This document shows positions 1-33,319 of a DNA stretch of 64,000 bases, in pieces (position 1 is the stretch's first letter; each line of letters opens with the position of its first letter). The translations under genes were made by a program, and so were the position numbers. The notes under the pieces are model-generated. The model did no database searches. It was given only the letters and a program-made list of their open reading frames with translations, and had not been told where the DNA came from. The stretch lies in assembly GCA_000004985.1 (NCBI GenBank), contig GG738909.1. One strand, given 5' to 3'. The stretch is from Naegleria gruberi (Eukaryota).

Positions 1-2447
1 AAATCCTTAGAAGAAACTGAAGGTGGAATCTTCTTTAAGGCAATCTTGAAATGTTCTCTCGTTACAATCATTTCACCAATTGCCTTATTTGGAGTATTAG
101 TATTAGATCTTCCTTTCAATAAATGTTCTTTCAAACATGATGTTGCAGCTTCTCTAACCAAAGCAGCCAAATCAGCGCCTGAAAAGTTTTCACACAATTT
201 GGCAATTTCTTCCAAGTTTACATCTGAAGCAAGAGGTGTCTTTCTAGCAATGGTTTTCAAGACACTGATACGTTCTTGTTCGTTTGGTAATTTAACGTAG
301 AGAAGTTTGTCCAAACGACCTGGACGTAACATGGCTGAATCGATCATGTCAGGTCTGTTGGTTGCTGCAATGACAAATACCATTCCTCTCGATTCTAAAC
401 CATCCATGGCAGTCAATAATTGATTTACAACACGTTCAGAACTTTGTGAGCTAGATTCATTATCTCTCTTTGGACACAAGGCATCCATTTCATCAAAGAA
501 AATTACACAAGGTGATGAAGCAGCAGCACGACTGAAAACTTGTCTGACAGCTCTTTCAGATTCACCAACATATTTGTTCAAAAGTTCAGGTCCCTTAATT
601 GAAATAAAGTTAGCACCACTGTCGTTTGAAATGGCCTTAGCCAACAATGTCTTACCACAACCAGGTGGACCATAAAGTAAAACACCAGCTGGAGCTGTAA
701 GTCCAAGTTTCTTATAATGATCTGGATTCTTAATTGGTTCCATAATGGCCATTCTCAATTCTTCACGAACTTCTTCCAAAGCACCAATATCATCCCAAGT
801 AACATTTGGAACTGTTGCAAAACCTTCACGTTTAGCACTTGGTTGAACCTTCTTAATGGCCTTTTCAAAATCGTTAAATGTTACATAAAGATTGGCTAAT
901 TGTTGTTCTGTTAATGGTTCCTTCATGGAACGAAGAGTTTCAGAAATGATATTTCTACGCTTAATATCCTCTGGTGAATCATGTGAAACAGTTGAAGTGA
1001 CAGGAGTAGTAGGTGAAGCAGCTGTATCAACTGCCATTGGATCATCCCCTTGTTGTTGCTCAGTTCCAAAGACAATATCACCAAATATTCTGTGAATTGC
1101 AGCAATAGCAGCTTCATTAACAAGAGCTTTCAAATCAGCACCAACATAACCAGGAGTATTGTGTGCAATGGTTTTAAAATCAAAAGTATCATGTCCACCA
1201 TCCAATTTTAATTTTCTAGTGAGAATGTTGAGAATTTTCATTCTGGCCTTCTCATCTGGAATACCAAGTGAAATTTCTCTATCAAATCTTCCAGCTCTTC
1301 TCAAAGCATCATCTAATGAATCAGGTCTATTTGTGGCACCAATTATAATTACTGTTTTACCTCCAGTTTTTTCCAATGTTAAATCATCCAAACAAGTAAT
1401 CAATTGAGCAACGATACGTTTTTCCATTTCCTTTGAAGCATTATCTCTCTTACTTAAAATTGCATCAATTTCGTCAATGAAAATAATACTTGGTGCATTG
1501 GAAATTGCATCACGGAAAATTTGACGAATCTTGGCCTCAGATTCACCACTCATACCACTAACAATTTCAGGAGCTGAAACTTTAAGGAATGGAATTTGTA
1601 ATTCACCAGCAATTGCATTAGCCAACATGGTTTTACCACAACCAGGTGGACCATGAAGTAAAATACCACGTGGTGGTTCAACACCCAATGTTGAGTAAAT
1701 TTCTGGATGCAAAATTGGATATTCAATCAATTCACGAATATCTTGTAAAATATTATCAATACCTCCAATATCACTAAATCTAATATTTGGTGTTTCAACA
1801 ATAATCTTTGGTTTTTTGGAGGAGCCACTACTTGGATCCGATTTGGTCTTTTTCTGAGGTGGAGCTTCTTTCACTTCCTTTGATGATGAACTGGATGAAG
1901 CAGTATTCGAATTGGATGAAGCAGAAGTATTATTAGAGGAAGAAGATTGAGAATTGGAAGGAGTAGTATTGGTAGTAGTTGAAGAAGAATTTGGTTGTTC
2001 TCTCTTTCTCTTCAAGTCATTTTCATTATTTTCAAGAGAAATGTTAGTTGATTGTTCCTTATAGACATTTTGTAATTGGTAATTCATTGAAGTCTTTTCA
2101 TTATTAATAACTTCCTTGAGTTTGGCAACTTTTTGCATTCTCTTTTCTAATTCTTCTTTTGAAATTTGTTCTTCTTCCGATGATGATGATTCATCTTCTC
2201 CGAGAAGTCTATCAATTGCTACTAGACAAATTTCTTTAAAATCCAATAAAGGAATTTGTTTATAATCCTTTTCATGTGATTTTCTCAAGTATGTACAGAG
2301 TGGTAATATTTCCTTTTCCCCAATTGATGTTTTATCATGTGATTCCATGTACTCTTCAATACGTTCAAGAAGAGCACTCTCATCAATTTTAGGTCCTTTA
2401 GAAGATGCTTTACGATTATTATTGTTATGTTTTTGTTGTTTACCCAT
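1..2447 (-). CDS. Type II AAA+ ATPase with two ATPase domains, nuclear VCP-like (NVL/Rix7 family). The CDS is partial: the C-terminus runs off the window at position 1.
   Basis: Hand translation of the minus strand from an ATG at ~2447 is open down to position 1 with no stop. Two Walker A motifs appear: [23 protein letters not shown] and [20 protein letters not shown]. Walker B DEID/DEMD, an SRH region, and a K/S-rich nucleolar-type N-terminus are present. It is absent from the ORF track because it has no in-window stop. Confidence 0.85.
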
Positions 2448-2592: not shown

Positions 2593-3450
2593 TTACAACT
2601 CGTGTGAAGTGGTGGTCAATTGTTCGTTAATCTTCAAGTTTTGTTGCAAGAGGTGTGATAAATAGACAATCATTTGCAAGTCCTTGTTGTGTTGACCAAT
2701 AGTCTTATCAAAGTCATCAACTGGCTTCAAGAGTTGGAATGAAGACAACAAAAAGTGGTACAATTCAAAGTTCTTCTTGTTCGAAGATTGCAAATACTTG
2801 CCAATTTCTTCCAAATCCTTCTTCAATTGTTGGATAGTTTGTTGTAAAACAATATTGCTTTGCAAATACTTGTTGGTTTGGAGGTAGTTCATTGACAACT
2901 TTTCATTATCAGTCATAATGTATTCAACTCTAACTTGTTCAAACAATGTACCAACAACTTTGTCCTTGAATTTCAATTCTCTATTCATGTATCCTTTGAA
3001 ATCTATTAATCTTCCGGTGACTGTTTCGTTACCTTGTGGAACATTGATAGTACAATCAAGGACGAGTGGGCTCTTCATGATGTTATCACTGAAAGATTGA
3101 TAGATTTGTTTATCAACTGTTGTTTTCGATGTTGAAATGGTGTAGAAACCTATAAGTGTATCATTAGAGTAGACACGATGATGAAGGCTTTCCATCTTTT
3201 TGTAATAGGAAACATCAATATCGGTAGTATTTTCAGTAAATTTCAAAGGAATAGTATTCTTAATTTCAAAGTATCCTCCTTCTCTGAACTCTCCAAATAA
3301 ACATCCAATAATATCAGTCTTTGAATTAAAAGCAACTCTTTGATAATGATCCAAAATATTCAACATTACCAAAGGATGGAGTTTATAAGTAGAAGTGGTT
3401 GTACCATTGTTTTTCTCGTTGATGAGAAGACAGCTTGTGCTTCCTTGCAT
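2593..3450 (-). CDS. eif3F: Translation initiation factor eIF3 subunit f (MPN-minus, Mov34 family).
   Basis: 285-aa ORF. It carries an MPN core (KLHPLVMLNILDHYQR ... IGFYTIS) with no HxH JAMM motif. The C-terminus (DFDKTIGQHNKDLQMIVYLSHLLQQNLKINEQL) resembles the eIF3f C-terminus ([33 protein letters not shown]). Confidence 0.7.
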   Translation of the reverse strand: MQGSTSCLLINEKNNGTTTSTYKLHPLVMLNILDHYQRVAFNSKTDIIGCLFGEFREGGYFEIKNTIPLKFTENTTDIDVSYYKKMESLHHRVYSNDTLIGFYTISTSKTTVDKQIYQSFSDNIMKSPLVLDCTINVPQGNETVTGRLIDFKGYMNRELKFKDKVVGTLFEQVRVEYIMTDNEKLSMNYLQTNKYLQSNIVLQQTIQQLKKDLEEIGKYLQSSNKKNFELYHFLLSSFQLLKPVDDFDKTIGQHNKDLQMIVYLSHLLQQNLKINEQLTTTSHEL

Positions 3451-4161
3451 CTTTTGTATATGATGATGGTGTGATTAATATTCGGCAAATAGCAAGGCAA
3501 CAAAAAGCACCGTGATGATGAGAATATTTTTTCAAGTCAAAAAAAATTTACAAAATATTTTTTATTTTATTTTTAAAAATGTTTGCTTCAAGATTCTTCG
3601 CATCATAAACAAGGTGGTTGAGAAGAGAACAATGGAAGCAATCTGAGTTTTACATTTAATTTTGGCTCATGAAAGAAAGAATTAATAGAAGTAATTTTGG
3701 TGATTGAATTCAACAGAGAAGTTATTTTCTTCAATGAAGATTAGAAAGCCTAATGATGAATAATTAATATATATTCTTAATTTAGGCAATGAGGTTGTAT
3801 CTTGGTAATCAAGATTAATGAACCAATTCATTCTTAAAGAAATATTAAGGGATTAATAACAAAAGGTTGATGATAATGGATTTTAGAAAGCTACCATATG
3901 ATATTGTGAATTATTGAATGAAACACCAAGTCGAGATGAGCCTTTGTTCCACTTCATGAATTTCAGCATATTACCCATCAGAATAAATCGGAGCAATCTT
4001 ACCAACCATTTTACCATCATGCTGATTATAATAACAGCCCAAACTCGATTCTTGTTAATCTAATGATGAGAAGTATGATGGAAGATGATAATCAGAATCA
4101 CATAAACGAACACCTCACCGAGAATCAAGTAGAAAAAGGCTTTGAAAATTGTTTGTAAAAA

Positions 4162-6590
4162 ATGCAACAAAATACGCTGTTGCCAAATTCTTCTCATAAG
4201 AACAATACGACAAACAACAATACCACAACAATGGAAAATTGTTCAGCATTGGACTCATCGAGTAATGCAAGTAGTGTAGAAGGTAAATGTTCAGCTACGA
4301 CAAATTCTGCTGTACTTTCATCAGGAATTAATCATTCGGATAATTACAGTGCAAGTCTTCATCATCAACCAGAAGAAGAAGAAGAAATTTTACACTTTGA
4401 TTCCTCTGCTTGCTCTTCCTCAAAACAAAATAGTAGTGAAAATAATGCATTACTCTCTGCTGGGGAGAATGAAAAAAGTAGTCAAGCTAATTTTACAGCT
4501 TCATTATTGTCTTCTTCATTAAATAATTATTCTGAAATTAATTCTTCTGAATTGAATGAAGTTGTAAATAATAGTAGTAGTACTAGTTGTAGACTAAATA
4601 GTCATATAGGAACTTCCGAACCTATTGATGAATCAACAAGTTGTTTTCGGAGATGTAATTCTCTTATTCAACAATTGTTATATAGAATTCAACCTTCTTC
4701 CGAGTCTGAAAAACACAGAAAAGAAGTGTTTGATATTATTGCTGCAGTGCTAGAGTTAGCCAACCTGAAAGTAAATATCAAATTTATTTACATTTTAATT
4801 AATGAATTTTAAATTAGACATATTTATATGGATCAGTAGCTTTTAAAACTTATTTACCTGATGGAGATATAGATTTAAGTGTGTTTGTGAGTAATGAAGA
4901 ATACTTGGAGCTTTCATCACAGAATGTAAATAATTTGTTAAGTCATCAACCTCAAGTTAATGATTCAACAATTTCTTATGTTCATAATGTTTTATTAAAG
5001 AATATGCATATTGGATTAAAACAACAATTAGCAGACCCATCAATACCATGGTACAACAAGGCAAGAAGTTTATTTTCAGAAATTCAGAGAAATAATCTTG
5101 CTTATATTGAGGATATGACATTTATTAATGCTGAAGTTAAATTAATCAAATGTACGGTTAACAACATTCCTATTGATATGTCATCAGGTCAAATTGGAGG
5201 TTTATCCACTTTATGTTTTTTGCATGAAGTTGATGATAAGATTGCTGATAATCATCTATTTAAGAGGAGTATCATTTTAATGAAATCATGGTCTTACTAT
5301 GAAAGCAGAATTCTGGGATCTCATCATGGTTTAGTATCAACATATGGATTAACTGTCTTGTTAATGTATATGTTCCGTTTGTACAAAATTGAAACACCAC
5401 TTCAGGTGAGTAATTTATTATTTCATTTTTAAATATGAAATGTTAATTATAGGCACTTTATAGATTTTTAAATTATTATAGTACCTTTGATTGGACTAAT
5501 TTTGGTATTAGTATTTATGGTCCAATACCTTTAGGAGCTATTAACGATCACAAAAGTATTGAAGGTATGCATAATTACTTATATGGAATTATTAAAACAT
5601 TTTGAAGATTTTTATTACGAAAATTTACCACCTGAAAGACACGACTCTCTCACGAGTTCATTCCTTCAATCATGCAAATCCAAATATGGAACAGTTGACT
5701 CCTCCAAGACATTTACGATCAAAAATTTAAATATTGTAGATCCTTTGAGAGATTTTAACAATTTAGGAAGGAGTGTGAATTACAATAATTTTCTTAGAAT
5801 ACGGAGAGCAATTAAAAAAGGCTCAAAGACAATTACTGACATTTTGATTTCAAATGATTTAATGGAGTCAGAAAAAATTTTGAAATTATTCTTTAAGAAT
5901 GTAGTTGAAAAATATATTACAGATCTTCCATCATTTATTCAACAACATGATAAGGAAACAATTATAAAGGTAGAGGATAGTGCTAGTGTATTTGACTCTA
6001 AATTGGAAGATTGCAGAAATTGTTTGGAAACTGCACACAGTTTACTAGGTATCAATGCATCACCAAATGCCAACAATAGATCTGTAGAATCATCTGTATC
6101 CTCAACGAGTTCACAACCTATAGAAACAACACCAACAAAAAGCATTCCAGTCCCTACAACACCACCAAAGAGAAGTAATTCATTCAGTAATTTTATTGCT
6201 TCACCTTTAAGTCCATTGAACAGTTCTGCAATCTACACAAGAAACCTTTCATTGATGCACAGAAATAGTGGATCATCAATAGCTCAATTGGGAAGTAGTA
6301 TGTTAGCAGCTGCTCATTCTGGAAATATCAATCCAAATAATATCACACCAATAAGAAATTCTCAACACATGGAAATACCAGGTGATATTCCAGTTAAGAG
6401 TGATTCTGCAGATTTAACTGTTACATACAGTCCATCAAAACAAAAATCAAAAAAGAATCCAAAAGAGAATGAAAACATTGATCCAAATAAGTTTGAAAAA
6501 GTTCACAAGCAAAGAACCCCTCGCTCAAATTCCAAAGCCAACAGACAAACACCAGAACCAAAGAAAGAAACAAAAAAGCAAGTAAAGTGA
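4162..6590 (+). CDS. Non-canonical poly(A) polymerase-like nucleotidyltransferase (NTP_transf_2 plus PAP/OAS1 substrate-binding region). Four exons.
   Basis: Three track ORFs join in frame across short AT-rich introns. Exons are ~4162-4770, 4818-5405, 5453-5564 and 5608-6590, with GTAAAT/GTGAGT/GTATGC donors and AG acceptors. The spliced product reads ...ANLK|TYLYGSVAFKTYLPDGDIDLSV..., the hG[GS]...DxD nucleotidyltransferase signature. It continues ...LMKSWSYYESRILGSHHGLVSTYGLTVLLMYMF, which is PAP/OAS1-SBD-like. The tails are S/N-rich. Confidence 0.7.
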
Positions 6591-6620
6591 TTGTAGTGTA
6601 CTTTATTATAATACAGCTAT

Positions 6621-7759
6621 TTACATTTTGTTTGGTTCTTCACCGAACAAATCTTGTTCACTCAAAAATTGGTCATTGTTCAAAAAATCAGAATCGCCAA
6701 AAGGATTCATTGTACAAGCTTCGTTTTCATTAGAGTACCAATCCACAATATGGTGAGGGTATGTATTATTTGTGGATTCAGTTGCAATATCAGCTCCAAA
6801 AGCGAATGTGTTATACAAGTGTGTTGAAGGGGTTGAGTAATTGACTGTTTGGTGAGGTTGTTGGAAGTACAAGTTGAAAAATTGTGCTAAGGCATTAGCA
6901 TCAGAGTAAGTTAAAGGAGTGTTAAAAGTAGCAGGAGCTGAGGTTGTGTTAAAAGCAGAATTGGTTGAGTAGGAACTAATAATTGGACTACCAAAACCGC
7001 GGTATGTGCTATTATTTGCTTGTTTAGTCTTCTTTGATGGTTCACTAATGAGAGCATCTAAATCTTCACTGCAGATGCCAACTGGTGTATTTGTAATTAT
7101 GTTACAAGTATTGATTGGAGTAGAGGTAGAATACAAGTTTTCTAAAGTTGGTTGAGTGGAAATATTCTCTGGTGGACTCAAAAGACGTCTCTTTGCAGGT
7201 TGTGGTAAATATTGGTTGGATAAAGTATGTTGTGGTTGTGGTGGTACAGATGAGTTAATGGTTGGTTGTTGTTGTTGTTGTGAGAGGAAGGTTTATCAAC
7301 TAATGCAGAAAGGGTTGCAGGTAAACTTGAAACAGATGCATTAGTTGTAGTTCTCTTTCTCTTCTTCTTTTCTTCAACTTTTGGTGAAGGAAGAGGTGAA
7401 GGAAGAGAGGTTGGAAGTTCACAAGTTGATTGTTTTCTCTTTGGTTGTGTTGCAACAGTGGTGGTAGTAGTAGTTGTGGTTTGAGACTTCTTCTTTTTTG
7501 GAGAAGAAATAATTGATGGTGATGAATCACCACTTGAAATGCCATCTAATTCAAGAGGTCTTTGCTTCTTATTTCTCTTAAAGAAGAGACCACACTTATT
7601 ACACAAATATGTTGTTGAAGGGGTGGATGGAGTACAAGCTTCTGGTGTTTCAACAGTTGGGGAAAACTTTCTCCATAATGGAGATTGAGTTGTTTTGCAA
7701 TTCCAACAGACTTTATCGCCTGGTTGTGGTGAACAAGTAGAAGGTGAATGATGAGTCAT
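6621..7759 (-). CDS. GATA-type zinc-finger protein, interrupted. Two adjacent ORFs sit in different frames.
   Basis: The upstream ORF (7178-7759) has CWNCKTTQSPLWRK...YLCNKCGLFFKRNKKQRP, a C-x2-C ... C-x2-C GATA-like finger with a long loop. The downstream ORF (6621-7181) continues S/T/N-rich coding in the +1 frame. No AT-rich intron lies at the junction, so a frameshift, an indel or a pseudogene is likely. Confidence 0.5.
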
Positions 7760-9961
7760 GGTTAAATATATGATACAGGTAAGATATTGTAATAGAGGAG
7801 AGAGGGATGGTTGAATATTTTCTAAATTAGGTCAACAATAGCAATAGTGATATGACAAATTTGTACAAAAAGTAGTTTGATTAAACGACGAACGCAAGGA
7901 GGGTGTGAAATGTTGTTGCACTAAAGTTCAATAGTAGTGTGCGAGTAGTGGTAGTGGTGGAATATGAAGTAATGTATCGAGTCAATTTGACAGTGAGGAA
8001 TTGATGAATATTGATGTGAAGAATTGCAACAATATTAACTGTTATGTGATTGAAAGGTAGAGTAGTACAGGGAAGGTAGAATTTACAAGTTAATCCAAAG
8101 TAGTGATAAAGGCTTGTTTCAAAAACAGTTGAATAAATAGTCAGACAGAACAATATTATAACGAATGCTGATAGGGAGGTCTCGAGTGTGGATACAACAA
8201 CAGATATGAAGGTTGACAATGATTTAACGTAGTCTCGTAATATCAATTACCACAAAAACTGTTGTGTCTTGCAAGGAAGGTTGCAGCAACAAGGCTGTAT
8301 TATTGTTTTGTAAATTGTGTCGTGACAATGTGTTATTTTCAATATATATTATTAGGCCACACACCACAGAGAGTATTGGCTGATGTTGTTGGTTGGTTTT
8401 TTTTTAGTGGAAAATGAGGTATGAACCCTCTGAGAACAATTCCACCCACTGCCAGCTGCAACACGACCTCTCCTCACACACAAGAGGCTTGTTAGCGGCG
8501 TGTTGCTGCGAGTTTCTTGTTGGCTTCTTATTGTACAGCTGTGAAAAAAAGGCACGTTGTGAGTTGTGATGAATGATTTTTCATGTCTCTTGCTTGGCAC
8601 CAGTTGCGTTCAAATGAGCTCGATGCAAATACGGAAAACAAAAATTGCGAAGCGTCACAATAGATTTTCATTTGATGCAAATTGACAGATTTGAAAAGAT
8701 GAGATTTAAGAGCTTTGTTGAATATATCTCTCCCTAGTCAATAATTAATTGAATCAAATAATATTTTGCATTTTACTCTGTTTAATGTGAATATGAAGAA
8801 CTTGTGATTTCCTTAATCTGATGGTTGGTGTGGTGGTGAGGCACTGATAAATCACAGTAATATTAATTGACTACTGTTCTTAAAAATGGTTAAGGTTGCC
8901 GGGCTTTGAATTTTGTATAATTAAGGACTTTCACACAATGCAGTCCTTATTCAGTTTGAATGGATTGTATCTCCTCAAATCCTTGATTTTCACAAGTGAA
9001 GAACCCTCAAAAGAGCACTATTATGTTCTTCTCTCCAAACTGTTATTGTCAATATTGTAAACTAGGCAAGTGAATGGTTAAGAGTTTTGGTGAAGATTCC
9101 CATAATTTTGTAAATTACGTGTCATTGCAATTCGTTCTTTACATGTTGTGTGTTGAATAGGAACACGAATGAAATTCATGTGATCTTTTTTTAACTTCAT
9201 TAAGACCTTTTCAACATGGAAGAAAGCTGACAGGAGTATACAACGATGGCTTTGATTTTCGTTAAAAAGCTCTTTCAACTCCGAATCAAATAAAAGCTGC
9301 CAATTCTGTACCATTGTTTTTCACTTGTTAAAGTGGCAGTTACTACTGTTGGCGAGTGTACAATTAATCAGACAACAATCGGGAAAGGGGTTTTTAACTG
9401 TAGTTGCCTCAATAGTTGTAACAACATCTGCTGCTGTTGTTCATGCAAAACATTCCGATGCTCTCAATTGGATTGTAGGAAGATTTGAATGAATTACTGT
9501 TGTTGTTGTTTTTAATTCGTTGCATTATTGTTGTAATAGAAGGAATGGAGGTGGTACCTTGGCAAAACTCTAACGAACATTTTTCAAAGAACAATTATGA
9601 AGAAAATTAATTGAATGTAACATTCCGAGAAACTTGAGTCCGGTTAGTTGGAGTTCGATTCGAATCAATCTTGAAAATGTTGTTTTCAATATTTTGTTGA
9701 ACATGGTGGTTGGGATGGTATTAATGGAATTGGTAATAAGGTTGACTTCTTTTTGTTTGTCGTGCTTGCAGCTTCTCAATCTGTTTGGTCAGTTCCTCAA
9801 AGTATCAAAATGATTCGTTTGTTTTTAAGGAAAAAATAAGTTTAGCCTCAATAGTGTTATCGGATTCTGATTTTCTAACACTTTCTTGGAAGAAAATAAA
9901 GACACAATTATTGGAAACTCAATTTAGGAGTTGAACCTTTTCACCCAGTTAAATTTCCATC

Positions 9962-11699
9962 TTGATGCTAAACAAAGTTCATTACAAAAAAATAAGCAAA
10001 AATCAAAGGCTTTGCTTTTCATCACAACAACATACTCGAGTTTTCTACAACAATCAAAATAATTTATTAACAATGGTGACTAAAAGATCGCTCCGAAACA
10101 AGGAAAATGATGATGAAGAAAATACCAAAGTAAAGAATAATAATTCATCATCAATTACATCAAGTTCAAAGAAGGATAAAAAGAAACAATCAAAGAAGGA
10201 GGAAAAAAAGAACAAACAAATTGCTAAACAGCCAGTTGTGGAAGAAGATTCTGAAGATTCAAATTCTGAAGAGGAAGTTCAAAAACCAACAAAATCAAAG
10301 AATTCTAGACTAGTTACGGAATTGTCAAAGAATGTAAAATTGGATTCAAAGGAAAATGATGTTTCATCTCAATTGGCTACTGTTAGATTTTTGAGATCAA
10401 ATGGTGAGAAGGGATTGGAAAAATTAGTAACAAATTATCATTTGAAAGTTAAGAAACATTCACACTTCTCTAATTTATTTTCATTGAAATATGACATGCT
10501 GAAGAGTCCATTCTCTACTGATATTGTACAGGAATGCAGAGGATTAGTTTTAGATAAGGATAATAATTATAAGGTTGTTTGCTATCCTTTCAAAAAGTTC
10601 TTTAATTATGGAGAAAAGTACAATGCCTCAAAAGATATCAATTGGAAGGAAGCTAGAGTTTATGAAAAAATTGATGGAAGTTTATGTACACTTTATTATT
10701 ATGGGTGAGTAGCTTGCTATATTTGCAATTTCTAAATTTGTAAGTGATATGTGGTGGATTTCAACAACAGGAACTGCCAGTGGTAATGGCTATCTCCACA
10801 ATCAAAAAAGAACATTTGACAAACTCTTTTGGGATTTATGGAAAAAATTGGGTTATCAATTCCCAGATCCTAAGGAGAATAAGATTTACATGTTTGAACT
10901 CTTTTCGAATGAACATACAATCATTGTAAAGCCAGATAGAGATAGAATCGTGTTATTGGGAGTGAGGGATTTAACAACATTGAAAGAGGAAGATCCTGTA
11001 CCAATTGCAGAGCAAATGAAATGGGAATGTGTACAATCTTACCCACTCTATACTTCTGTAGGAATGGTTTTCGATGCAGCCAGAAATTTGGATCCATCCA
11101 AATATGAAGGATTTGTTGTTTGCGATTCCAATTTCAATAGAATCAAGATTAAGAGTCCACAATATGTTGCACTTGCCCATTTAGTGAATAAGGATGATGA
11201 AGATGATTCAGAAACTCAAGATTCTCCATCCCAAATTCAATCAAAGAAGAGAAAAATGTTGCAAATTGTTCGAAGTAATGAATCATCAGAGTTTTTGGCT
11301 TACTATCCAAACCTGGAAGAGATACATACAAGTGTTAAATCACAATATGACAAGTTGATTTCCATCACTAAGGAGATAGCATCTGACATCAAGGGAAAGT
11401 ATTATAGTAATAACGAGGAAGAGACATCGAATAAGGACGCTATTGTGAACTTTATTCAAAGAAAGTGTCAAACTGATTATTCAAAATTATTAATTTCAAT
11501 TTTGGATAAACAGAATCCAAACATCAAAGTTGATGAAGAGGAGATGAAGACAAGCAAAAAGTTTTCAAAAATCGTTAAGCAAACAATGACAATTGCTGTT
11601 TATCAAGAGATGTTTGGAAACAAGTCATGTGAGCAAGTTTATACAACGGTAGAAATCTCTGCTCTTTTTGATTTGTTAAATTTTGCTTTCTACTTGTAA
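9962..11699 (+). CDS. ATP-dependent RNA ligase, T4 Rnl1-like (covalent nucleotidyltransferase with a KxDG motif). Two exons.
   Basis: Exon 1 ends ...ARVYEKIDGSLCTLYYYG. Compare T4 Rnl1 motif I, KEDGSLVSTY. A 40-nt intron with a GTGAGT donor lies at ~10705-10744. Exon 2 reads DMWWISTTGTASGNGYLHNQ...YMFELFSNEHTIIV... The N-terminus is K-rich (SSKKDKKKQSKKEEKKNKQ), likely an NLS. Confidence 0.65.
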
Positions 11700-11772
11700 A
11701 TTAATTTGAAATATTAAAACAACAATTTCATATCAATAATTATTTATATGAAATTGGAAATAAAAAGTTAAT

Positions 11773-11874
11773 GAGATGAGGTTGGTTTCGATCCAACGTC
11801 CATGGGGCATCCGTGTAACCTGTAAGAGATTAACACGTTTGGAGGTCCATGCTCTCCCTCTGAGCTACTCACCC
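11773..11874 (-). tRNA. tRNA-like locus. It could be an intron-containing tRNA (the loop CTCCAAA would give anticodon CCA, Trp) or a tRNA pseudogene.
   Basis: On the minus strand: acceptor GGGTGAG, U8A9, D arm GCTC-AGAGGGA-GAGC, T arm GTTGG-ATCGAAA-CCAAC with A54/A60, and a 3' acceptor strand CTCATCT (two G-U pairs). A 40-nt segment lies between the anticodon-stem 5' half (TGGAC) and the T arm. It holds a hairpin (CGTGTTAA...TTACACG) but no GTCCA to complete the anticodon stem. Confidence 0.4.
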
Positions 11875-11937
11875 CAAAACCTGAAAGAAAAATTTCACCT
11901 CTATTACCTTTCCATCACTCAATTACAATAATTACCT

Positions 11938-13557
11938 TTATTTAAATCTATTGTATTGTCTTTTAAAGTCAAATCTGAAATTTCTCAACATTTCATATCT
12001 TGTTTGAAGTGGAATATCATGATGTGATTTAAAATTGTCATGTTTTCGAATAAGTTTTTCGGCAAGATACTTTTCCAATTCATCAAATATTGATGGTTGA
12101 ATTACCTTTCCAATAGATTCTTCTGATAATTTACAAAGTTGCGAATATTCCTTGTGAGAAGAAATCAATTTGGTAATTTCTATTACTATCTGATTCAGTT
12201 CTTGCTTTAAATTAATTTCTTCTTGTTCTATTGATTGTAAAGTATTATAAGTAATCATAGAACTTGTTGAAGTACTTGTATTCAAATCAACAATTGATGA
12301 TGACATACTTGAAGTGTCACTGTCATCAGTCAAACTATTAAGTGAACCATTTAGAGATGTATTTACACTACTATTATTGTTATTAGCAATCAACTTGGAA
12401 ACATATGCCAAAGTATTTGAAATTTCCTTAAATCTTTGAATCAATTCCAATAAATGATGGAATTTTGCACTTTTTGAATTGACCAAATAATTTTTAAATG
12501 ATTTTCTAGAAAGTGTATCATTCATAGTATTCAAAACTAGTACTATTTGTGTTTTTCTCAATTTTCTACTCATTGAAATATCCTTTTTAATCATTAAAGT
12601 AAATGTCAATACCACAATTGGAATTGCTATTAACAAACAAACTCCAATAATTGTTAAACTTGTAGTGGAAGCTTGTTGAGAAATATTTAAATTATTTTGA
12701 ATGTTTGCTTTGATTTTAGTTAACATGTAATTCCAACCATTTGCAAATTGACGTATGGCAGAATTCACATTTGCTGACAGGAGTAATGAAGAAGCAGCTG
12801 ATAAATTTCCCTCCAAAAATATATCTACTATTTCTTGATGTAAATTTAATAAGGAAATATTCTGAGCAGTTATATTATATTCATTTTGAATTGTATTGGA
12901 AATATCAGAATCTACCAAATTTAGTAATTTTCCAATACTTTGTTTAAATATATCCTTTCTAGTTACCCAATCATGAATACTTGCATTATGTGAACCAATT
13001 ACACCTAAATTAATATCATTAGTTGTTAATTGATATTGATAACTCATATCATTATACGAAACTAGAGTTTCCATAATTGGTTTATTCACAACTGTATATG
13101 AATAAATAGTCATACTTCCAATTACAATAAAAGAAATAATATTAATTATCATTCCTAATAATAATAATAATCTTACACAATCACATTCTAATACTGTACC
13201 AAAACATGTCCTTATTTGGATGGTACTAACAAATGACTTGCTATTTATGGATTTGGATATTTTAGTAGTATTAGATTTTGGTGACTTGATACTTGTAATT
13301 GTACTTTTAATATGTTGAGGAGGTTTTACTTCTTGTTGACAGGTGGCAGTTGACTTGTCAAGTGGTTGAGTAGATATCTTATCAAATGATGACATTTTTT
13401 CTTTGTTTTTTAATTTGTTTAATAGAATAATTTGCATCTGATATGACATTATTATTGAGAGATGACAGAATGATGTAAAGCATGGACGCAATCCAATTCT
13501 TAATCGGCAATTATAATAAGATTTTGGTAAAGAGCTACATGAAAGGTATTGATACAA
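11938..13557 (-). CDS. Uncharacterised membrane protein, paralog A. Topology is TM - ~180 aa ectodomain - TM - cytoplasmic coiled-coil.
   Basis: 539-aa track ORF. The likely true start is the internal MSSFDKISTQ (ATG near 13395). TM1 is VRLLLLLGMIINIISFIVIGSMTIYSYTVV and TM2 is LTIIGVCLLIAIPIVVLTFTLMIKK. The cytoplasmic tail carries a YSQLCK motif shared with the neighbouring gene. Confidence 0.6.
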   Translation of the reverse strand: MYQYLSCSSLPKSYYNCRLRIGLRPCFTSFCHLSIIMSYQMQIILLNKLKNKEKMSSFDKISTQPLDKSTATCQQEVKPPQHIKSTITSIKSPKSNTTKISKSINSKSFVSTIQIRTCFGTVLECDCVRLLLLLGMIINIISFIVIGSMTIYSYTVVNKPIMETLVSYNDMSYQYQLTTNDINLGVIGSHNASIHDWVTRKDIFKQSIGKLLNLVDSDISNTIQNEYNITAQNISLLNLHQEIVDIFLEGNLSAASSLLLSANVNSAIRQFANGWNYMLTKIKANIQNNLNISQQASTTSLTIIGVCLLIAIPIVVLTFTLMIKKDISMSRKLRKTQIVLVLNTMNDTLSRKSFKNYLVNSKSAKFHHLLELIQRFKEISNTLAYVSKLIANNNNSSVNTSLNGSLNSLTDDSDTSSMSSSIVDLNTSTSTSSMITYNTLQSIEQEEINLKQELNQIVIEITKLISSHKEYSQLCKLSEESIGKVIQPSIFDELEKYLAEKLIRKHDNFKSHHDIPLQTRYEMLRNFRFDFKRQYNRFK

Positions 13558-15422: not shown

Positions 15423-15440
15423 AAGAACCTTAATTGGAGG

Positions 15441-15566
15441 AGGTAGGTAAATGTGAAATACTTTTATAATGAATGTGCTCGTCTCGTGGTGTAATGGTAG
15501 CATAGTGGACTTTGAATCCATTGACGGAGGTTCGATTCCTCCCGAGACGGTAAACGTGGCGAGCGT
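15441..15566 (+). repeat. Duplicated tRNA-Gln unit, copy 1 (gene plus conserved flanks).
   Basis: The 5' flank aggtag..aaatgtgaaatacttttataatgaatgtgctc and the 3' flank ggtaaacgtggcgagc match the second copy at 20481-20604 nearly exactly. Confidence 0.7.
15480..15550 (+). tRNA. tRNA-Gln (anticodon UUG).
   Basis: Manual cloverleaf: acceptor CGTCTCG/CGAGACG, D arm GTGT-AATGGTA-GCAT, anticodon arm GTGGA-CTTTGAA-TCCAT, 4-nt variable loop, T arm GGAGG-TTCGATT-CCTCC, discriminator G. 71 nt, with box A and box B present. Confidence 0.9.
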
Positions 15567-20321: not shown

Positions 20322-20480
20322 TATATTGAAATATTGTACCTAAAATGAAACGCCATTAATTTTTATTATTTTCCTAGTTTGAAATTATTTGAATCATAAC
20401 ATTGTTTATCATGTATTCCAAGAATTCATCATAATTTTAAGCAACAATAGATGACTTTTTGATACAAGCTTAAATGAAAG

Positions 20481-20604
20481 AGGTAGTGAAATGTGAAATA
20501 CTTTTATAATGAATGTGCTCGTCTCGTGGTGTAATGGTAGCATAGTGGACTTTGAATCCATTGACGGAGGTTCGATTCCTCCCGAGACGGTAACGTGGCG
20601 AGCC
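20481..20604 (+). repeat. Duplicated tRNA-Gln unit, copy 2.
   Basis: See copy 1. The gene body is identical. The 5' flank (33 nt or more) is identical. The 3' flank differs by a 1-nt indel (gtaacgtggcgagc). Confidence 0.7.
20520..20590 (+). tRNA. tRNA-Gln (anticodon UUG), second copy.
   Basis: Sequence identical to the 15480-15550 copy, with the same cloverleaf. Confidence 0.9.
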
Positions 20605-30139: not shown

Positions 30140-33100
30140 TTGCAAAAAAGAAAACAATACCAATTCCTTATTCTTGTTGTCTTCATTCTCATTCATTCAT
30201 ATGTCAAAAAAATGAAACCAATCACTTTGTGGTTGATTTGTGCATTTCTCATTTCTATTGTTCATGGTTCTCTCAAGATTTATAATGGGGAACCAGTAAA
30301 TGAACACATTCCTTTCATTGTGAGTTTAAAGATACCAAATGATTTGTGTGGAGGAAGTATTTTGAATGAACGCTTTATTCTTACCGCTGCCCATTGTTTT
30401 TGGTTTGCCAAAGAATGTGAAGATATTATAGTGGGTGCTGGTTCTAATATTCTGGACGCTCCATTACAACAAAGAAAAACACCTTTTCATAGGGATCAGT
30501 ATGTGCCACCTACATTCGATGCGAAAGGAAAATGTTTATTCTCCGATCTAAGAATTGTTGATCTTGGAGCTGGTAATGAATTAATATTTGACGGTACAGT
30601 TTCACCAGCTTTATTAGACACTAATGGTCCCACTGTGGGTGCGAGCGTTACTTTTGCTGGATGGGGTATTAGAAATGAAAACTCTCCTCATTCACAAAAA
30701 CTGTTCAAAACAACAGAGATTATTCAAGATTATAAGACTTGCCCTATTACTGATGAAAATTTTTTGCATTGTACACCAAATGAAAGTAGTGGTCAATTTT
30801 GTGCATGGAACGAAAAAAGTATTTCTTGTCCAGGTGATTCTGGAAGTCCAGTATTTTATGTAGCTAATGACAAGTCCAAAATAGTTACTGGTGTGGTTAG
30901 TGCTACCACTGCTTATGAAAAGAAAACATGTTTGCAACCTGGCCAGAAGGATTTACACACATCAGTAGCAAAACACACTAATTGGATAATAGAATATACA
31001 AATCAAAATACGTTATGTAAGTTTTCCAAATGTTACTTTGACTATATATATTTAAAAGATGGGTGGGGAAGAATGGATGACCACTTTTTATTCTGGAGAG
31101 AAAACCCTTCACAAGACGATTCCTTAACCAATCCAAAGATTATTAAGATGAATCCCTCTGAAGGTGTGATGCCAATATTGAGAAAACTGAGACCAACAAA
31201 AGGAAAGTTTGCACTTGGTATCTCCGCTTCAAATAGACTATATTTATGGGGTAGAGGAAACCAATATCAATTAGGAAATGGGAAGAATTCTGACATTCTC
31301 CATCCAACTGTTCATAATTTTGTTCTAGAAAATATTTTAGATGCATGTGGGGGTTATTCACATTCACTAGCCCTTAGTACTGATGGTAAGGTTTATGAAT
31401 GGGGAACACTCGCCGACGCTATTAAGAAGACACCAACTGTAGTTGTTTTTCCCAATAATGACAAAATCAAAAGTATATCCTGTGGCCACAGTCACAATCT
31501 TGCAGTTTCACAAGATATGAAAAGATTGTATTTTTGGGGTAAAAATCAATATGGAGAGGGAGGGAATATTAAGGGTGCCTGTGCATCAAATCCTAAAGCA
31601 TTCATCGAGCGTCCAATCCTTATCTCAATCGATAATAATGATTTTACCATTATTAGTATTTGTGCAGGAGATTCAACCAGTTATGAAGTAACATCAAAGG
31701 GACATGTTTATTCTTGGGGTTATAATGAACAATCTCTTCTAGGAACAGGTATTTCTAGTATTTGTATTGGAATACCAACAAAAATATCTGTGGAAAATGC
31801 AGAAAGAATGTATTGTGGTGATCAAATGTGTTTTGTAAAAGCTGTTAACAATGTGTACGGATGGGGAATTAACAAGTTTAATGAGATAGATGAATCTGGA
31901 CTTCCAATTATAAGCCCCATCATTACAAACATTGAAAGCGCGTCTGATATTACGATTGGAAATGATTTTGTTTTATACAAAATATCTGATAGTTGGTATG
32001 GCAAAGGAAATAATTATATGGTATCGGGTCCTTCTAACTTTAACAAAGGAGTTGATATTGAATGCACAAACTATTATTGCTTTGTTTTTGGTCAATCAGT
32101 GAAACTGAGAATTGATGTAACAGTTTGTTATTTTGTTTCATTAGCATTGAATATCATATTTTTTTGTTTAGGCTTAATATGTATCAAGAAAAGGTCAACG
32201 AAAATGAGATTATATACACCTTGTGTTTTTCCATTTTTAATGTTATGTTTGAGAATTTATCAAATTTATTTCAAGTTCAAATATAATCAAAATTATGGAC
32301 TGTTTGAGTCTGGTTTAGGTGACTATGAAATTTTATTGATTTTATTCTCATTATACACTCCTGTAGTATTAAGAAACAGTATTTTAGTCAATTTAACTGA
32401 ATATCTTGAAAAAGTGGTAAACAGATTTACCATTAGGCTTTGGAAAATATTTACCTCAGAGTTGTTATTTATTGGGTTTATATTATTGGCCTTCTTTGGA
32501 ATGGCATGTCCGATTTTTCTCAACCTCAAAGATAGACGTATTGTTATTATTGCTATTATAATTTTTTTTTTTATTATGAATATTTTATTGCAATATGTAA
32601 TACCTTTTATTCAATTTTGTTTGCATATTAAGAGGAGAAAATCAATTATCAACTTTTTTGATTTTGATGATCCGCTCCACTTAAGAAAGGAGTATTTGAG
32701 TGCCTTTTTGACTGTTGTGGTTAACCTATCTTTTGGATTTATTCTGACACCCTTCAGCGTTATCTGGCAGGTTAATGTTATTGTTCTACAACCAATTTTT
32801 TTTATTTTCTCAATGGGAGGATTAGCTTGTGCGATAGAGTTTATTAATAATTTCAGGAAAATATCAAATGCTTCATTGAATGAAGTGCTCATCATTCCAC
32901 GTTTGTTTGAATTGTTGAAGCAATATGCAAAAAGAGAGCTGACTTTTGAAAATGTCGTTTTACATGAAAAGATACAGGAAATAAGAGAAATGGTGGACGA
33001 AAGAGAAGTTTTTGAAAAGCTAAAAGAGGTCAATCGAGATTTTTTCTCAACATTTTCAAAATATGAGGTTTCAATCTCGAAAAATTCTAAAACAAATTTG

Positions 33101-33319
33101 AAGAAATGGTTCGGGGAGATAGGCGTGATAGAGGATTCAAAGATAGTCCAATGGAGCAAAGAGAGTCTTTTAGAAACAGCAGCAACAAGACGAAATTCAA
33201 GAGTATTATTTTATTTTACCTCCACATTCACCTCTATCATTGAAAAGGACATACAAAGCAACTTGGGTGCTACGTTAGAACGATTAAAACACACACGAGA
33301 GTTTAAGATGAAAGTTTAA
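30140..33319 (+). CDS. Multidomain receptor-like protein: signal peptide, trypsin-like serine protease domain, RCC1-like repeats, 7-TM region, C-terminal RGS-like domain.
   Basis: The likely start is MKPITLWLICAFLISIVHG, a signal peptide. Protease hallmarks: CGGSILNERFILTAAHCF (His), DLRIVDL (candidate Asp), CPGDSGSPVF (Ser). RCC1-type repeats: LYLWGRGNQYQLGNG, VYEWGTL, LYFWGKNQYGEGG, VYSWGYNEQSLLGTG, VYGWGINKF. Seven hydrophobic helices lie between VCYFVSLALNIIFFCLGLICI and VIVLQPIFFIFSMGGLACAIEFI. The tail RLFELLKQYAKRELTFENVVLHEKIQE...EVNRDFFSTFSKYEVSI fits an RGS-box pattern. Confidence 0.7.
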   Translation: MQKRKQYQFLILVVFILIHSYVKKMKPITLWLICAFLISIVHGSLKIYNGEPVNEHIPFIVSLKIPNDLCGGSILNERFILTAAHCFWFAKECEDIIVGAGSNILDAPLQQRKTPFHRDQYVPPTFDAKGKCLFSDLRIVDLGAGNELIFDGTVSPALLDTNGPTVGASVTFAGWGIRNENSPHSQKLFKTTEIIQDYKTCPITDENFLHCTPNESSGQFCAWNEKSISCPGDSGSPVFYVANDKSKIVTGVVSATTAYEKKTCLQPGQKDLHTSVAKHTNWIIEYTNQNTLCKFSKCYFDYIYLKDGWGRMDDHFLFWRENPSQDDSLTNPKIIKMNPSEGVMPILRKLRPTKGKFALGISASNRLYLWGRGNQYQLGNGKNSDILHPTVHNFVLENILDACGGYSHSLALSTDGKVYEWGTLADAIKKTPTVVVFPNNDKIKSISCGHSHNLAVSQDMKRLYFWGKNQYGEGGNIKGACASNPKAFIERPILISIDNNDFTIISICAGDSTSYEVTSKGHVYSWGYNEQSLLGTGISSICIGIPTKISVENAERMYCGDQMCFVKAVNNVYGWGINKFNEIDESGLPIISPIITNIESASDITIGNDFVLYKISDSWYGKGNNYMVSGPSNFNKGVDIECTNYYCFVFGQSVKLRIDVTVCYFVSLALNIIFFCLGLICIKKRSTKMRLYTPCVFPFLMLCLRIYQIYFKFKYNQNYGLFESGLGDYEILLILFSLYTPVVLRNSILVNLTEYLEKVVNRFTIRLWKIFTSELLFIGFILLAFFGMACPIFLNLKDRRIVIIAIIIFFFIMNILLQYVIPFIQFCLHIKRRKSIINFFDFDDPLHLRKEYLSAFLTVVVNLSFGFILTPFSVIWQVNVIVLQPIFFIFSMGGLACAIEFINNFRKISNASLNEVLIIPRLFELLKQYAKRELTFENVVLHEKIQEIREMVDEREVFEKLKEVNRDFFSTFSKYEVSISKNSKTNLKKWFGEIGVIEDSKIVQWSKESLLETAATRRNSRVLFYFTSTFTSIIEKDIQSNLGATLERLKHTREFKMKV

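Follow-up and report, generated by a model that had tools for sequence, protein, structure and literature searches.

An Rnl1-type RNA ligase gene and an aberrant tRNA-like gene in Naegleria gruberi are probably unrelated neighbours

The domains appended to RNA ligases define their families (PMC6379707), and T4 RNA ligase 1 (gp63, Rnl1; PDB 2C5U, 5TT6, 9DO4) repairs tRNA anticodon loops (PMC4408790). Other described relatives are Trl1/RNL of fungi and plants (ligase domain; PDB 6N0T, 9QW7, 9R3W) and the 'T4 RnlA family', ligases of ~360 aa from bacteria, phages and the amoebae Acanthamoeba and Balamuthia. Naegleria gruberi encodes unusually many RNA ligases (13 ATP-dependent and 2 RtcB, 15 in all), and the ligase considered here, EFC38271.1, is one of its seven Rnl1-family paralogs catalogued by Unciuleac & Shuman 2015 (PMC4408790). 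The ligase gene itself is already catalogued and is not new, and a literature search on EFC38271.1 found nothing beyond a listing. Within the 64,000 nucleotides of N. gruberi DNA analysed here (the window), its neighbour on the opposite strand is a tRNA-like gene, which shares with eukaryotic intron-containing pre-tRNA-Trp(CCA) genes and tRNA pseudogenes an insert one nucleotide 3′ of the anticodon, a CUCCAAA loop, internal box A and box B, and a T-run terminator. We read the two as unrelated neighbours, an Rnl1-type ligase and most likely a non-decoding copy derived from tRNA-Trp(CCA), with no functional link between them, and assign this reading a probability of roughly 0.7.

The ligase gene has two exons (Table 1). 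Position 9962 merely opens the stop-to-stop reading frame, and the true start is ATG 10073, as joining the exons across 10705-10744 yields a 528-aa protein that matches GenBank EFC38271.1 / XP_002671015.1 exactly; a model starting at ATG 9965 is absent from the protein collection. The segment upstream of this ATG probably belongs to the 5′ leader or the promoter of the gene. The same exact match identifies the host as the heterolobosean N. gruberi and not, as the first-pass annotation had supposed, a dictyostelid. In the ortholog ORFs of N. lovaniensis and of L002, the frame shifts at the same place as the 40-nt intron. The lysine-rich N-terminus noted earlier is real, and its first 75 residues have pLDDT below 50 and are predicted to be disordered in the AlphaFold model of the N. 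gruberi protein, in which the core exceeds 90. This tail, NLS-like, probably targets the ligase to the nucleus or nucleolus. The N. lovaniensis ortholog has such a tail as well; the ~360-aa homologs from bacteria and phages that were inspected at the sequence level lack it.

Table 1. Features of the ligase gene and the neighbouring tRNA-like gene, in window coordinates
Feature	Position	Strand	Basis or remark
Stop-to-stop ORFs of the ligase	9962-10708 and 10749-11699	+	ORF list
5′ part of the stop-to-stop ORF, non-coding	9962..10072	+	Match to EFC38271.1 begins at ATG 10073
Ligase exon 1, aa 1-210 and two bases of codon 211	10073..10704	+	K-rich N-terminal extension and motif I
K/E/S-rich N-terminal extension, NLS-like, aa 1-95	10073..10357	+	e.g. 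KKDKKKQSKKEEKKNK
Lys199 codon, motif I (KxDG) nucleophile, predicted lysyl-AMP site	10667..10669	+	Aligns with T4 Rnl1 Lys99
Spliceosomal intron, 40 nt, GTGAGT...AG, splits codon 211	10705..10744	+	Frame analysis; splicing yields the exact GenBank protein
Ligase exon 2, aa 211-528 and stop codon	10745..11699	+	Motifs III, IV and V, helical C-domain
Glu262, motif III	exon 2	+	Aligns with T4 Rnl1 Glu159
Glu332-Gly333, motif IV	11106-11111	+	Aligns with T4 E227-G228
Lys345 and Lys347, motif V	11145-11153	+	Align with T4 K240 and K242
C-terminal helical domain, aa ~352-528	11166-11696	+	Superimposes on the T4 Rnl1 C-domain
T5 run, RNA polymerase III terminator-like, 6 nt past the 3′ end of the tRNA-like gene	11762..11766	-	Sequence
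tRNA-like gene: 7-bp acceptor stem, D arm, T arm (loop AUCGAAA), discriminator C, interrupted anticodon arm	11773..11874	-	Rfam RF00005
~30-nt insert directly 3′ of position 37, the canonical eukaryotic tRNA-intron site; boundaries uncertain	11809..11838	-	ARAGORN deletion scan
Anticodon-like triplet CCA (Trp) in loop CUCCAAA	11840..11842	-	CCU in strain L004

The proposal of an Rnl1-like ligase with a covalent motif I is borne out by the catalytic motifs. Motif I, EKIDGSLCTLYYY, lies in exon 1, where K199-I-D201-G202 aligns to T4 K99-E-D-G102, and K199, D201 and G202 are invariant across 62 homologs. The Rnl1-specific upstream residues R156 (T4 Arg54), K175 (Lys75) and F177 (Phe77) are also kept. 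All of the residues reportedly essential in T4 Rnl1 according to the list from Shuman-lab mutagenesis (Arg54, Lys75, Phe77, Lys99, Gly102, Glu159, Glu227, Gly228, Lys240 and Lys242) have equivalents, most of them family-invariant. Pfam PF09511 (RNA_lig_T4_1) matches aa 154-351 over its full profile (1-227 of 227) at 61.6 bits (cut-off 28.3; E = 1.3e-16), PHROG 562, the T4 gp63 family, matches at E = 6e-33, and the family profile run against the PDB finds T4 Rnl1 (2C5U) at E = 7e-19 over residues 51-302. Foldseek, run with the model of the N. lovaniensis ortholog, likewise ranks T4 Rnl1 at the top, followed by Rnl3 and Rnl5. DNA ligases and capping enzymes, the competing identities considered in the first-pass annotation, match far more weakly than the Rnl1 family does. 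With an NTase core, an Rnl1-type all-helical C-terminal domain and motifs I, III, IV and V, EFC38271.1 is, at the level of sequence, a genuine Rnl1-family (T4 Rnl1-like) enzyme. By alignment it belongs to the clade of ~360-aa 'T4 RnlA family' ligases, to which it is 35-45% identical across the entire catalytic and C-terminal region.

A comparison with the described enzymes also brings out several differences. Sequence identity to T4 Rnl1 is only ~17%. Unlike the phage gene, the Naegleria gene is interrupted by an intron, and its product has a longer C-domain, an acidic/K-rich insert at aa ~365-385 and, at the N-terminus, a K-rich tail of 95 aa. T4 Lys119 is not matched: Thr219 occupies this position in N. 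gruberi, and the family consensus there is 'SSG'. The tail-fibre-attachment context of T4 Rnl1 has no counterpart for the Naegleria gene. Assignment to the Trl1-type tRNA splicing ligases (fungi, plants, kinetoplastids) was rejected: the sequence resembles Trl1 only marginally (E = 0.003 over 30 aa), the N. gruberi protein lacks the fused healing domains (polynucleotide kinase and CPD), and its last 175 aa form helices that align with the C-domain of T4 Rnl1.

By homology, EFC38271.1 would act as a stand-alone ATP-dependent RNA ligase through the classic three-step pathway, in which Lys199 would attack ATP to form ligase-AMP, AMP would be transferred onto the RNA 5′-phosphate, and attack of the 3′-OH would seal the break. 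Kinase, phosphatase and CPD domains are absent from the 528-aa protein, in which PF09511 is the sole Pfam family found, so the enzyme would need ends that already carry a 3′-OH and a 5′-PO4. Because the modelled helical C-domain superimposes on that of T4 Rnl1, the most likely substrates would be nicks within loops of structured RNAs, the anticodon loop of tRNAs among them.

The tRNA-like gene lies 73 nt beyond the end of the ligase stop codon at 11699, on the opposite strand as first described. It scores 36.1 bits against the Rfam tRNA model (gathering score 29; E = 4e-5 in a 4-kb search; model positions 1-71), about half of the 57-69 bits reached by the other four tRNAs of the window. Its anticodon arm spans 41 nt where the Rfam model expects 11, and the earlier wording 'disrupted anticodon arm' is therefore accurate. 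The nucleotides of the tertiary contacts are intact (U8, A14, G15:C48, G18G19, U55C56 and A58), the unconstrained minimum-energy fold is a cloverleaf, and the loop CUCCAAA, with C32, U33 and A37, is a perfect anticodon loop. The ~30-nt insert folds as a ~10-bp hairpin (ViennaRNA), and T runs similar to the one past the 3′ end follow the other four tRNA genes of the window. ARAGORN makes no call on the native sequence, intron mode included. When all 3105 single deletions of 5-49 nt were run through the same program, a normal-length tRNA (Trp CCA) emerged only after removal of 29-30 nt around position 37, and its anticodon stem still had two mismatches. Three of the five stem positions pair (U27:A43, G28:C42 and G29:C41), and A30.C40 and C31.C39 are unpaired in every splice register tried. 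The suggestion of a possibly intron-containing or unusual tRNA stands insofar as the gene is aberrant and carries an insert at the eukaryotic intron site; the position and the ~30-nt length suit an intron between 37 and 38, but taking the insert out leaves the stem defective.

A second strain of the same species, ~99% identical to the window (L004), also carries the tRNA-like gene and allows its parts to be compared. Three substitutions separate the two copies, all in the anticodon/insert part (3/41), and one of them changes the third anticodon base, turning CCA (Trp) into CCU (Arg). The acceptor, D and T arms differ at 0/61 nt, against 10/139 (7%) in the flanking intergenic sequence, which hints at selection on the tRNA body; the Poisson probability of an invariant 61-nt body is roughly 0.01-0.04, an estimate from two sequences only. 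Judged by this pair of sequences, the anticodon does not appear to be maintained between strains. Conserved exons with a variable intron are also the pattern of a working intron-containing tRNA gene.

We take the minus-strand element to be a pol-III-type tRNA gene with an intron-containing tRNA-Trp(CCA) as its source or relative. In yeast and other eukaryotes, tRNA-Trp(CCA) contains an intron. If the gene worked as such a tRNA, its pol III transcript would be cut by the tRNA splicing endonuclease at 37/38 to release the ~30-nt insert and an RNA ligase would join the halves, with the adjacency to the Rnl1 gene still coincidental. The insert follows a perfect CUCCAAA loop, at precisely the site where introns canonically lie, the body lies above the Rfam gathering threshold with its tertiary-interaction nucleotides complete and a T5 terminator behind it, and between strains the exonic body stays constant whereas the insert changes. 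Several features set the element apart from intron-containing pre-tRNA-Trp(CCA), however, and make this reading unlikely: removal of the insert leaves a stem of three pairs with the same two mismatches in all registers tried, the triplet reads Trp in one strain and Arg in another that is ~99% identical, and ARAGORN rejects the gene in intron mode. The discriminator is C, whereas A73 is expected of eukaryotic tRNA-Trp. The T loop carries A54 and A60, a pattern found otherwise mostly in initiator tRNA-Met; in a pattern scan of metagenomes, 99 stretches matched, 83 of which were called by ARAGORN, and 65 of these 83 as initiator tRNA-Met. Among the ~924 tDNAs of N. gruberi, this gene is most likely a copy that is decaying or does not decode.

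A non-decoding tDNA might also be retained for another purpose, either as a TFIIIC/pol III site that marks a chromatin boundary at the edge of an inserted block or as the source of a tRNA-like small RNA. The invariance of the body, A-box and B-box regions included (0/61), next to changes at the intergenic rate in the anticodon and insert, would fit such a role, as would the location of the element exactly on a synteny breakpoint. The statistics are weak, however, with two sequences compared, and neither the window nor the JGI metagenome collection holds a further copy, so that retention of this kind seems improbable.

Several other identities were considered and rejected. ARAGORN draws an 8-bp acceptor stem, as in a selenocysteine tRNA, yet the arm contains no UCA triplet and a 6-bp D stem is lacking. 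Initiator-like features are the T loop AUCGAAA and the CCC strand, but CAU cannot be placed in the loop of an intron-bearing initiator tRNA. A class II tRNA with a long variable arm, a tRNA-His with G-1:C73 and non-canonical intron positions were ruled out by the scan of 3105 deletions. Vault RNA, Y RNA and other Rfam families are not supported, as only tRNA matches at E <= 1 within 9000-13000, and a YrlA-like Y RNA is at odds with an acceptor stem that ends at the pol III terminator and has no continuation into a Ro-binding helix. A repeat or SINE-like element was dismissed because no second copy occurs in the window (<= 3 mismatches) or in the JGI metagenomes; a looser metagenome pattern returned mainly initiator tRNA-Met genes and nothing related to the element. 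The UGA-reading tRNA-Trp with a '4-bp anticodon stem' resembles the element in its CCA anticodon and weakened anticodon stem, but the wrong pairs are broken: there, the top pair 27:43 is unpinned, whereas in N. gruberi the loop-proximal 30:40 and 31:39 fail. In addition, the ORFs of the N. gruberi window read normally by the standard code, and the related strain has CCU.

The adjacency of the two genes was compared over four other Naegleria-clade versions of the locus: L001 (N. lovaniensis), L002/L003, L005 and L006. These versions retain the ligase and the synteny upstream of it, and no tRNA lies beside the ligase ortholog in any of the four (no Rfam tRNA hit), where the next gene call follows within at most 119 nt. 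Only the same-species strain L004 shares the tRNA-like gene next to the ligase. In N. gruberi the element sits at the boundary of a ~22-kb species-specific block that holds all five tDNAs of the window, and synteny with N. lovaniensis is not regained before ~33.7 kb. No homolog of the downstream neighbour EFC38314.1 was found anywhere, and this gene offers no route to an orthologous tRNA. With 924 tDNAs (PMC2888827) among about 15,727 genes (PMC4408790), about 12% of N. gruberi genes flank a tDNA by our own arithmetic, and the chance that at least one of the 15 RNA ligase genes does so is about 0.85; one such pair is therefore expected by chance. The adjacency would have arisen through lineage-specific rearrangement or insertion and would carry no functional meaning. 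As such, the caution in the first-pass annotation that it might be coincidental agrees with the absence of synteny, and the functional link it raised finds no conservation in N. lovaniensis or the three other contigs.

A functional pair would require that the ligase repairs or splices the tRNA-like RNA, or that this RNA serves as its dedicated partner, by analogy with phage tRNA-repair modules and bacterial Ro60 / Y-RNA / RtcB operons. Mending of tRNA anticodon loops by T4 Rnl1 (PMC4408790), the RNA-repair neighbourhoods of related bacterial and phage ligases (L007, L008), and a tRNA body that is conserved while its anticodon is free to change are all in keeping with such a pair. It is nevertheless very improbable, given that the adjacency is missing from all four other versions despite conserved ligase and upstream synteny, that the tRNA-like gene is part of the lineage-specific 22-kb block, that the genes are convergent and use different polymerases, pol II for one and pol III for the other, and that chance alone would readily produce the arrangement. 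The narrower possibility, that a non-decoder with a selected body was recruited in N. gruberi as dedicated substrate, decoy or partner of a nuclear Rnl1-type ligase, is just as remote. The link would have been the interesting part of this locus, but the pairing is species-specific and expected by chance; since it fails, little is added beyond the existing annotation.

Two members of the 'T4 RnlA family' lie in RNA-repair or phage contexts, which are absent in Naegleria. The L007 neighbourhood comprises a CCA-adding enzyme, an Rnl2-like gene, a metallophosphatase and a cluster of 8 tRNA genes, and the L008 neighbourhood has Ro60/TROVE nearby. A recruited tRNA-like element, were it real, would give eukaryotes a counterpart to the Ro60 / Y-RNA / RtcB modules of bacteria or the tRNA-repair modules of phages. 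By modelling, full-length T4 Rnl1 has, among solved structures, its closest eukaryotic look-alike in EFC38271.1 itself, and this likeness, together with a likely nuclear-targeting tail, makes it a reasonable candidate for biochemical work.

The two ligase reading frames are joined across a short intron into a single gene (start codon ATG 10073) whose 528-aa product exactly matches EFC38271.1/XP_002671015.1 (NAEGRDRAFT_81679) of Naegleria gruberi. Further ORFs of the window are likewise identical to N. gruberi proteins and therefore the DNA comes from this heterolobosean amoeboflagellate, not from a dictyostelid as the first-pass annotation had assumed. That annotation had rightly placed here a ligase gene with a tRNA-like gene beside it on the opposite strand; the locus it described is real, but position 9962 is merely the start of a stop-to-stop ORF. 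The gene is already known, catalogued and uncharacterised: Unciuleac and Shuman (RNA 2015, PMC4408790) count EFC38271.1 among seven Rnl1-family members of N. gruberi, which also has five Rnl2 members, one Rnl5 and two RtcB, and our literature search found no mention of the gene outside that paper.

Several lines of evidence bear out the proposed assignment to the T4 Rnl1-like RNA ligases. The sole Pfam domain is PF09511 (RNA_lig_T4_1; full profile covered, E = 1.3e-16), PHROGs assigns the ligase to the T4 gp63 family (E = 6e-33), and a 62-homolog profile matches T4 Rnl1 (2C5U) over T4 residues 51–302 (E = 7e-19). In the alignment, K199 corresponds to the nucleophile Lys99 and G202 to Gly102 of motif I, E262 to Glu159 of motif III, E332-G333 to Glu227-Gly228 of motif IV, and K345 and K347 to Lys240 and Lys242 of motif V, while R156, K175 and F177 match the upstream, Rnl1-specific Arg54, Lys75 and Phe77. 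R156, K199, D201, G202, E262, E332, G333, K345 and K347 are invariant family-wide.

Closest to the ligase are its orthologs in N. lovaniensis (71% identity) and in other Naegleria-like assemblies; Acanthamoeba and Balamuthia proteins are farther away, and identity is 35–45% to many ~360-aa bacterial and phage 'T4 RnlA family' proteins. Because N. lovaniensis shares with N. gruberi both the place of the intron and the order of the genes upstream (JAB, PAP-OAS1, a 342-aa gene), the ligase is a resident eukaryotic gene; the 342-aa gene also lies upstream at another Naegleria-clade locus, L002. Two prokaryotic-type relatives were found in RNA-repair settings. On a 216-kb phage-like contig (ENA k141_870542, 3180–12202), genes for a CCA-adding enzyme, an Rnl2-like ligase, the homolog P0017 (Rnl1-like) and a metallophosphatase run in one direction, and behind them come eight clustered tRNA genes, one a weak tRNA-Sec-like match; the set resembles a module for maintaining and repairing tRNAs. 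On the other (GCA_040384425.1, 1052–12000), a Ro60/TROVE gene has the homolog P0055 1.1 kb downstream, with a PARP-like protein and an ATP-dependent DNA ligase after it; a partial tRNA match at 1052–1115 (model positions 4–67) may represent either an ordinary tRNA or part of a Y-RNA-like module.

The pairing of ligase and tRNA-like gene is coincidental and not meaningful, a possibility that the first-pass annotation had allowed. In N. lovaniensis a zf-CCCH/DSPc gene follows the ortholog within ~50 nt, other protein genes follow it at L002/L003, L005 and L006, and an Rfam tRNA search of all these loci gave no match. Homologs of the downstream neighbour EFC38314.1 were detectable nowhere. Synteny with N. 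lovaniensis returns only at ~33.7–43 kb, partly inverted, and the ~22-kb block before it contains all five window tDNAs together with ORFs most of which have neither Pfam domains nor homologs, so that the tRNA-like gene lies on the border of a lineage-specific block. Chance suffices for the adjacency: given 924 tDNAs (PMC2888827) and about 15,727 genes (PMC4408790), by our own arithmetic a tDNA is expected next to ~12% of genes, and with 15 RNA ligase genes the probability of at least one such case is ~0.85. Elsewhere in the window, a 128-nt sequence is directly repeated 5040 nt away with 95% identity; the tRNA-Gln(UUG) genes in its two copies are identical and share their flanks, which looks like a local segmental duplication. 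One 1059-aa ORF brings together RCC1 repeats, a domain of the trypsin-like protease type and a weak match to RGS.

Coordinates of features in the window and on metagenome contig L057
Feature	Position	Strand	Remark
Ligase ORFs	9962-10708 and 10749-11699	+	ORF scan
Ligase intron, 40 nt, GT..AG	10705-10744	+	joins both ORFs
tRNA-like gene	11773-11874	-	starts 73 nt past ligase stop codon
Lineage-specific block, ~22 kb	11700-33300		absent from syntenic N. lovaniensis locus
128-nt direct repeat	15426-15553 and 20466-20593		
1059-aa ORF	30140-33316	+	
zf-CCCH/DSPc + HOP flanking block	33.3-36.5 kb		inverted vs N. lovaniensis
L057 tRNA-like genes	4-77, 495-567, 1014-1086		

The tRNA-like gene matches the Rfam tRNA model end to end at 36.1 bits (gathering score 29); the window's other four tRNAs score 57–69 bits. 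It has a 7-bp acceptor stem (GGGUGAG/CUCAUCU, two pairs being G.U), U8, a D arm GCUC-AGAGGGA-GAGC, a G15:C48 pair, a T arm GUUGG-AUCGAAA-CCAAC and a T5 run 6 nt downstream. Its T loop carries A54 and A60, a pattern that in a metagenome scan came mainly from initiator tRNA-Met genes (65 of 83 ARAGORN calls; 99 matched stretches). The anticodon arm is disrupted, as first noted, with 41 nt against 11 expected: the 5′ part UGGAC-CUCCAAA is a perfect Trp(CCA) stem strand and loop, the ~30 nt after it fold into a ~10-bp hairpin, and the 3′ strand is (G)CCCCA. ARAGORN left the gene uncalled with introns allowed or not. When every 5–49-nt segment was removed in turn (3105 variants), loss of 29–30 nt adjoining position 37 gave tRNA-Trp(CCA), and a functional tRNA-Trp with an intron is a serious if unlikely rival, against which stand the A30.C40 and C31.C39 stem mismatches (or an equivalent pair in the other register) that persist after removal of the insert. 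Three tandem tRNA-like genes, spaced by ~500 nt, lie on an AT-rich metagenome contig (L057; PJUD01029338.1). The anticodon is CCA (Trp) in the second and in the third, both of which contain a mismatch in the anticodon stem; the third has, in addition, a T-run terminator and a T arm, GGAUCGAAACC, that resembles an initiator's.

The same locus in a second strain (L004, an ENA metagenome contig, ~99% identical) allowed two sequences to be compared. Differences number 4/1151 in the ligase coding sequence (0.35%), 18/1083 in the orphan neighbour (1.7%), 10/139 in intergenic DNA (7%) and 3/102 in the tRNA-like gene, where all three sit in the 41-nt anticodon/insert part. One changes the anticodon from CCA to CCU, which also speaks against a working tRNA-Trp. 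This pattern cuts both ways. The unchanged 61-nt body hints at constraint (Poisson estimate, P ~0.01–0.04) and favours a non-decoding function of that body, a minor rival that we consider quite improbable; the altered identity-determining base and the broken stem argue against a decoding role. Most likely, the tRNA-like gene is a decaying or non-decoding tDNA copy, and the odd gene is most simply a degenerate tDNA, mildly curious.

By homology, the ligase would be adenylylated by ATP at K199, AMP would then pass to an RNA 5′-phosphate, and the 3′-OH would finally seal the break. A Trl1-type healing-and-sealing enzyme is ruled out, as Pfam finds neither kinase nor CPD domain; since healing domains are lacking, 3′-OH/5′-PO4 ends would have to come from other enzymes. 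The T4-like C-domain suggests that the ligase may act on structured RNAs broken within a loop, for example the anticodon loop of a tRNA, and the K-rich tail suggests a predicted nuclear or nucleolar location. Among known systems, T4 Rnl1 compares best (24.8; 332/367 residues aligned, hence with the helical C-domain), ahead of the Trl1 ligase domains (18–19), Rnl3 (16.1), Rnl5 (NgrRnl, 14.0) and Rnl2 (13.4), and a Foldseek search with a model of the ortholog from N. lovaniensis is in agreement; DNA ligases (10.8 or less) and capping enzymes (8 or less) are clearly not the best match. Lys119 is essential in T4 Rnl1; in the N. gruberi ligase, Thr219 (codon 10727–10729) stands in its place. Throughout the bacterial/amoebal Rnl1-like clade the equivalent lysine is missing, and the family consensus reads 'SSG'.
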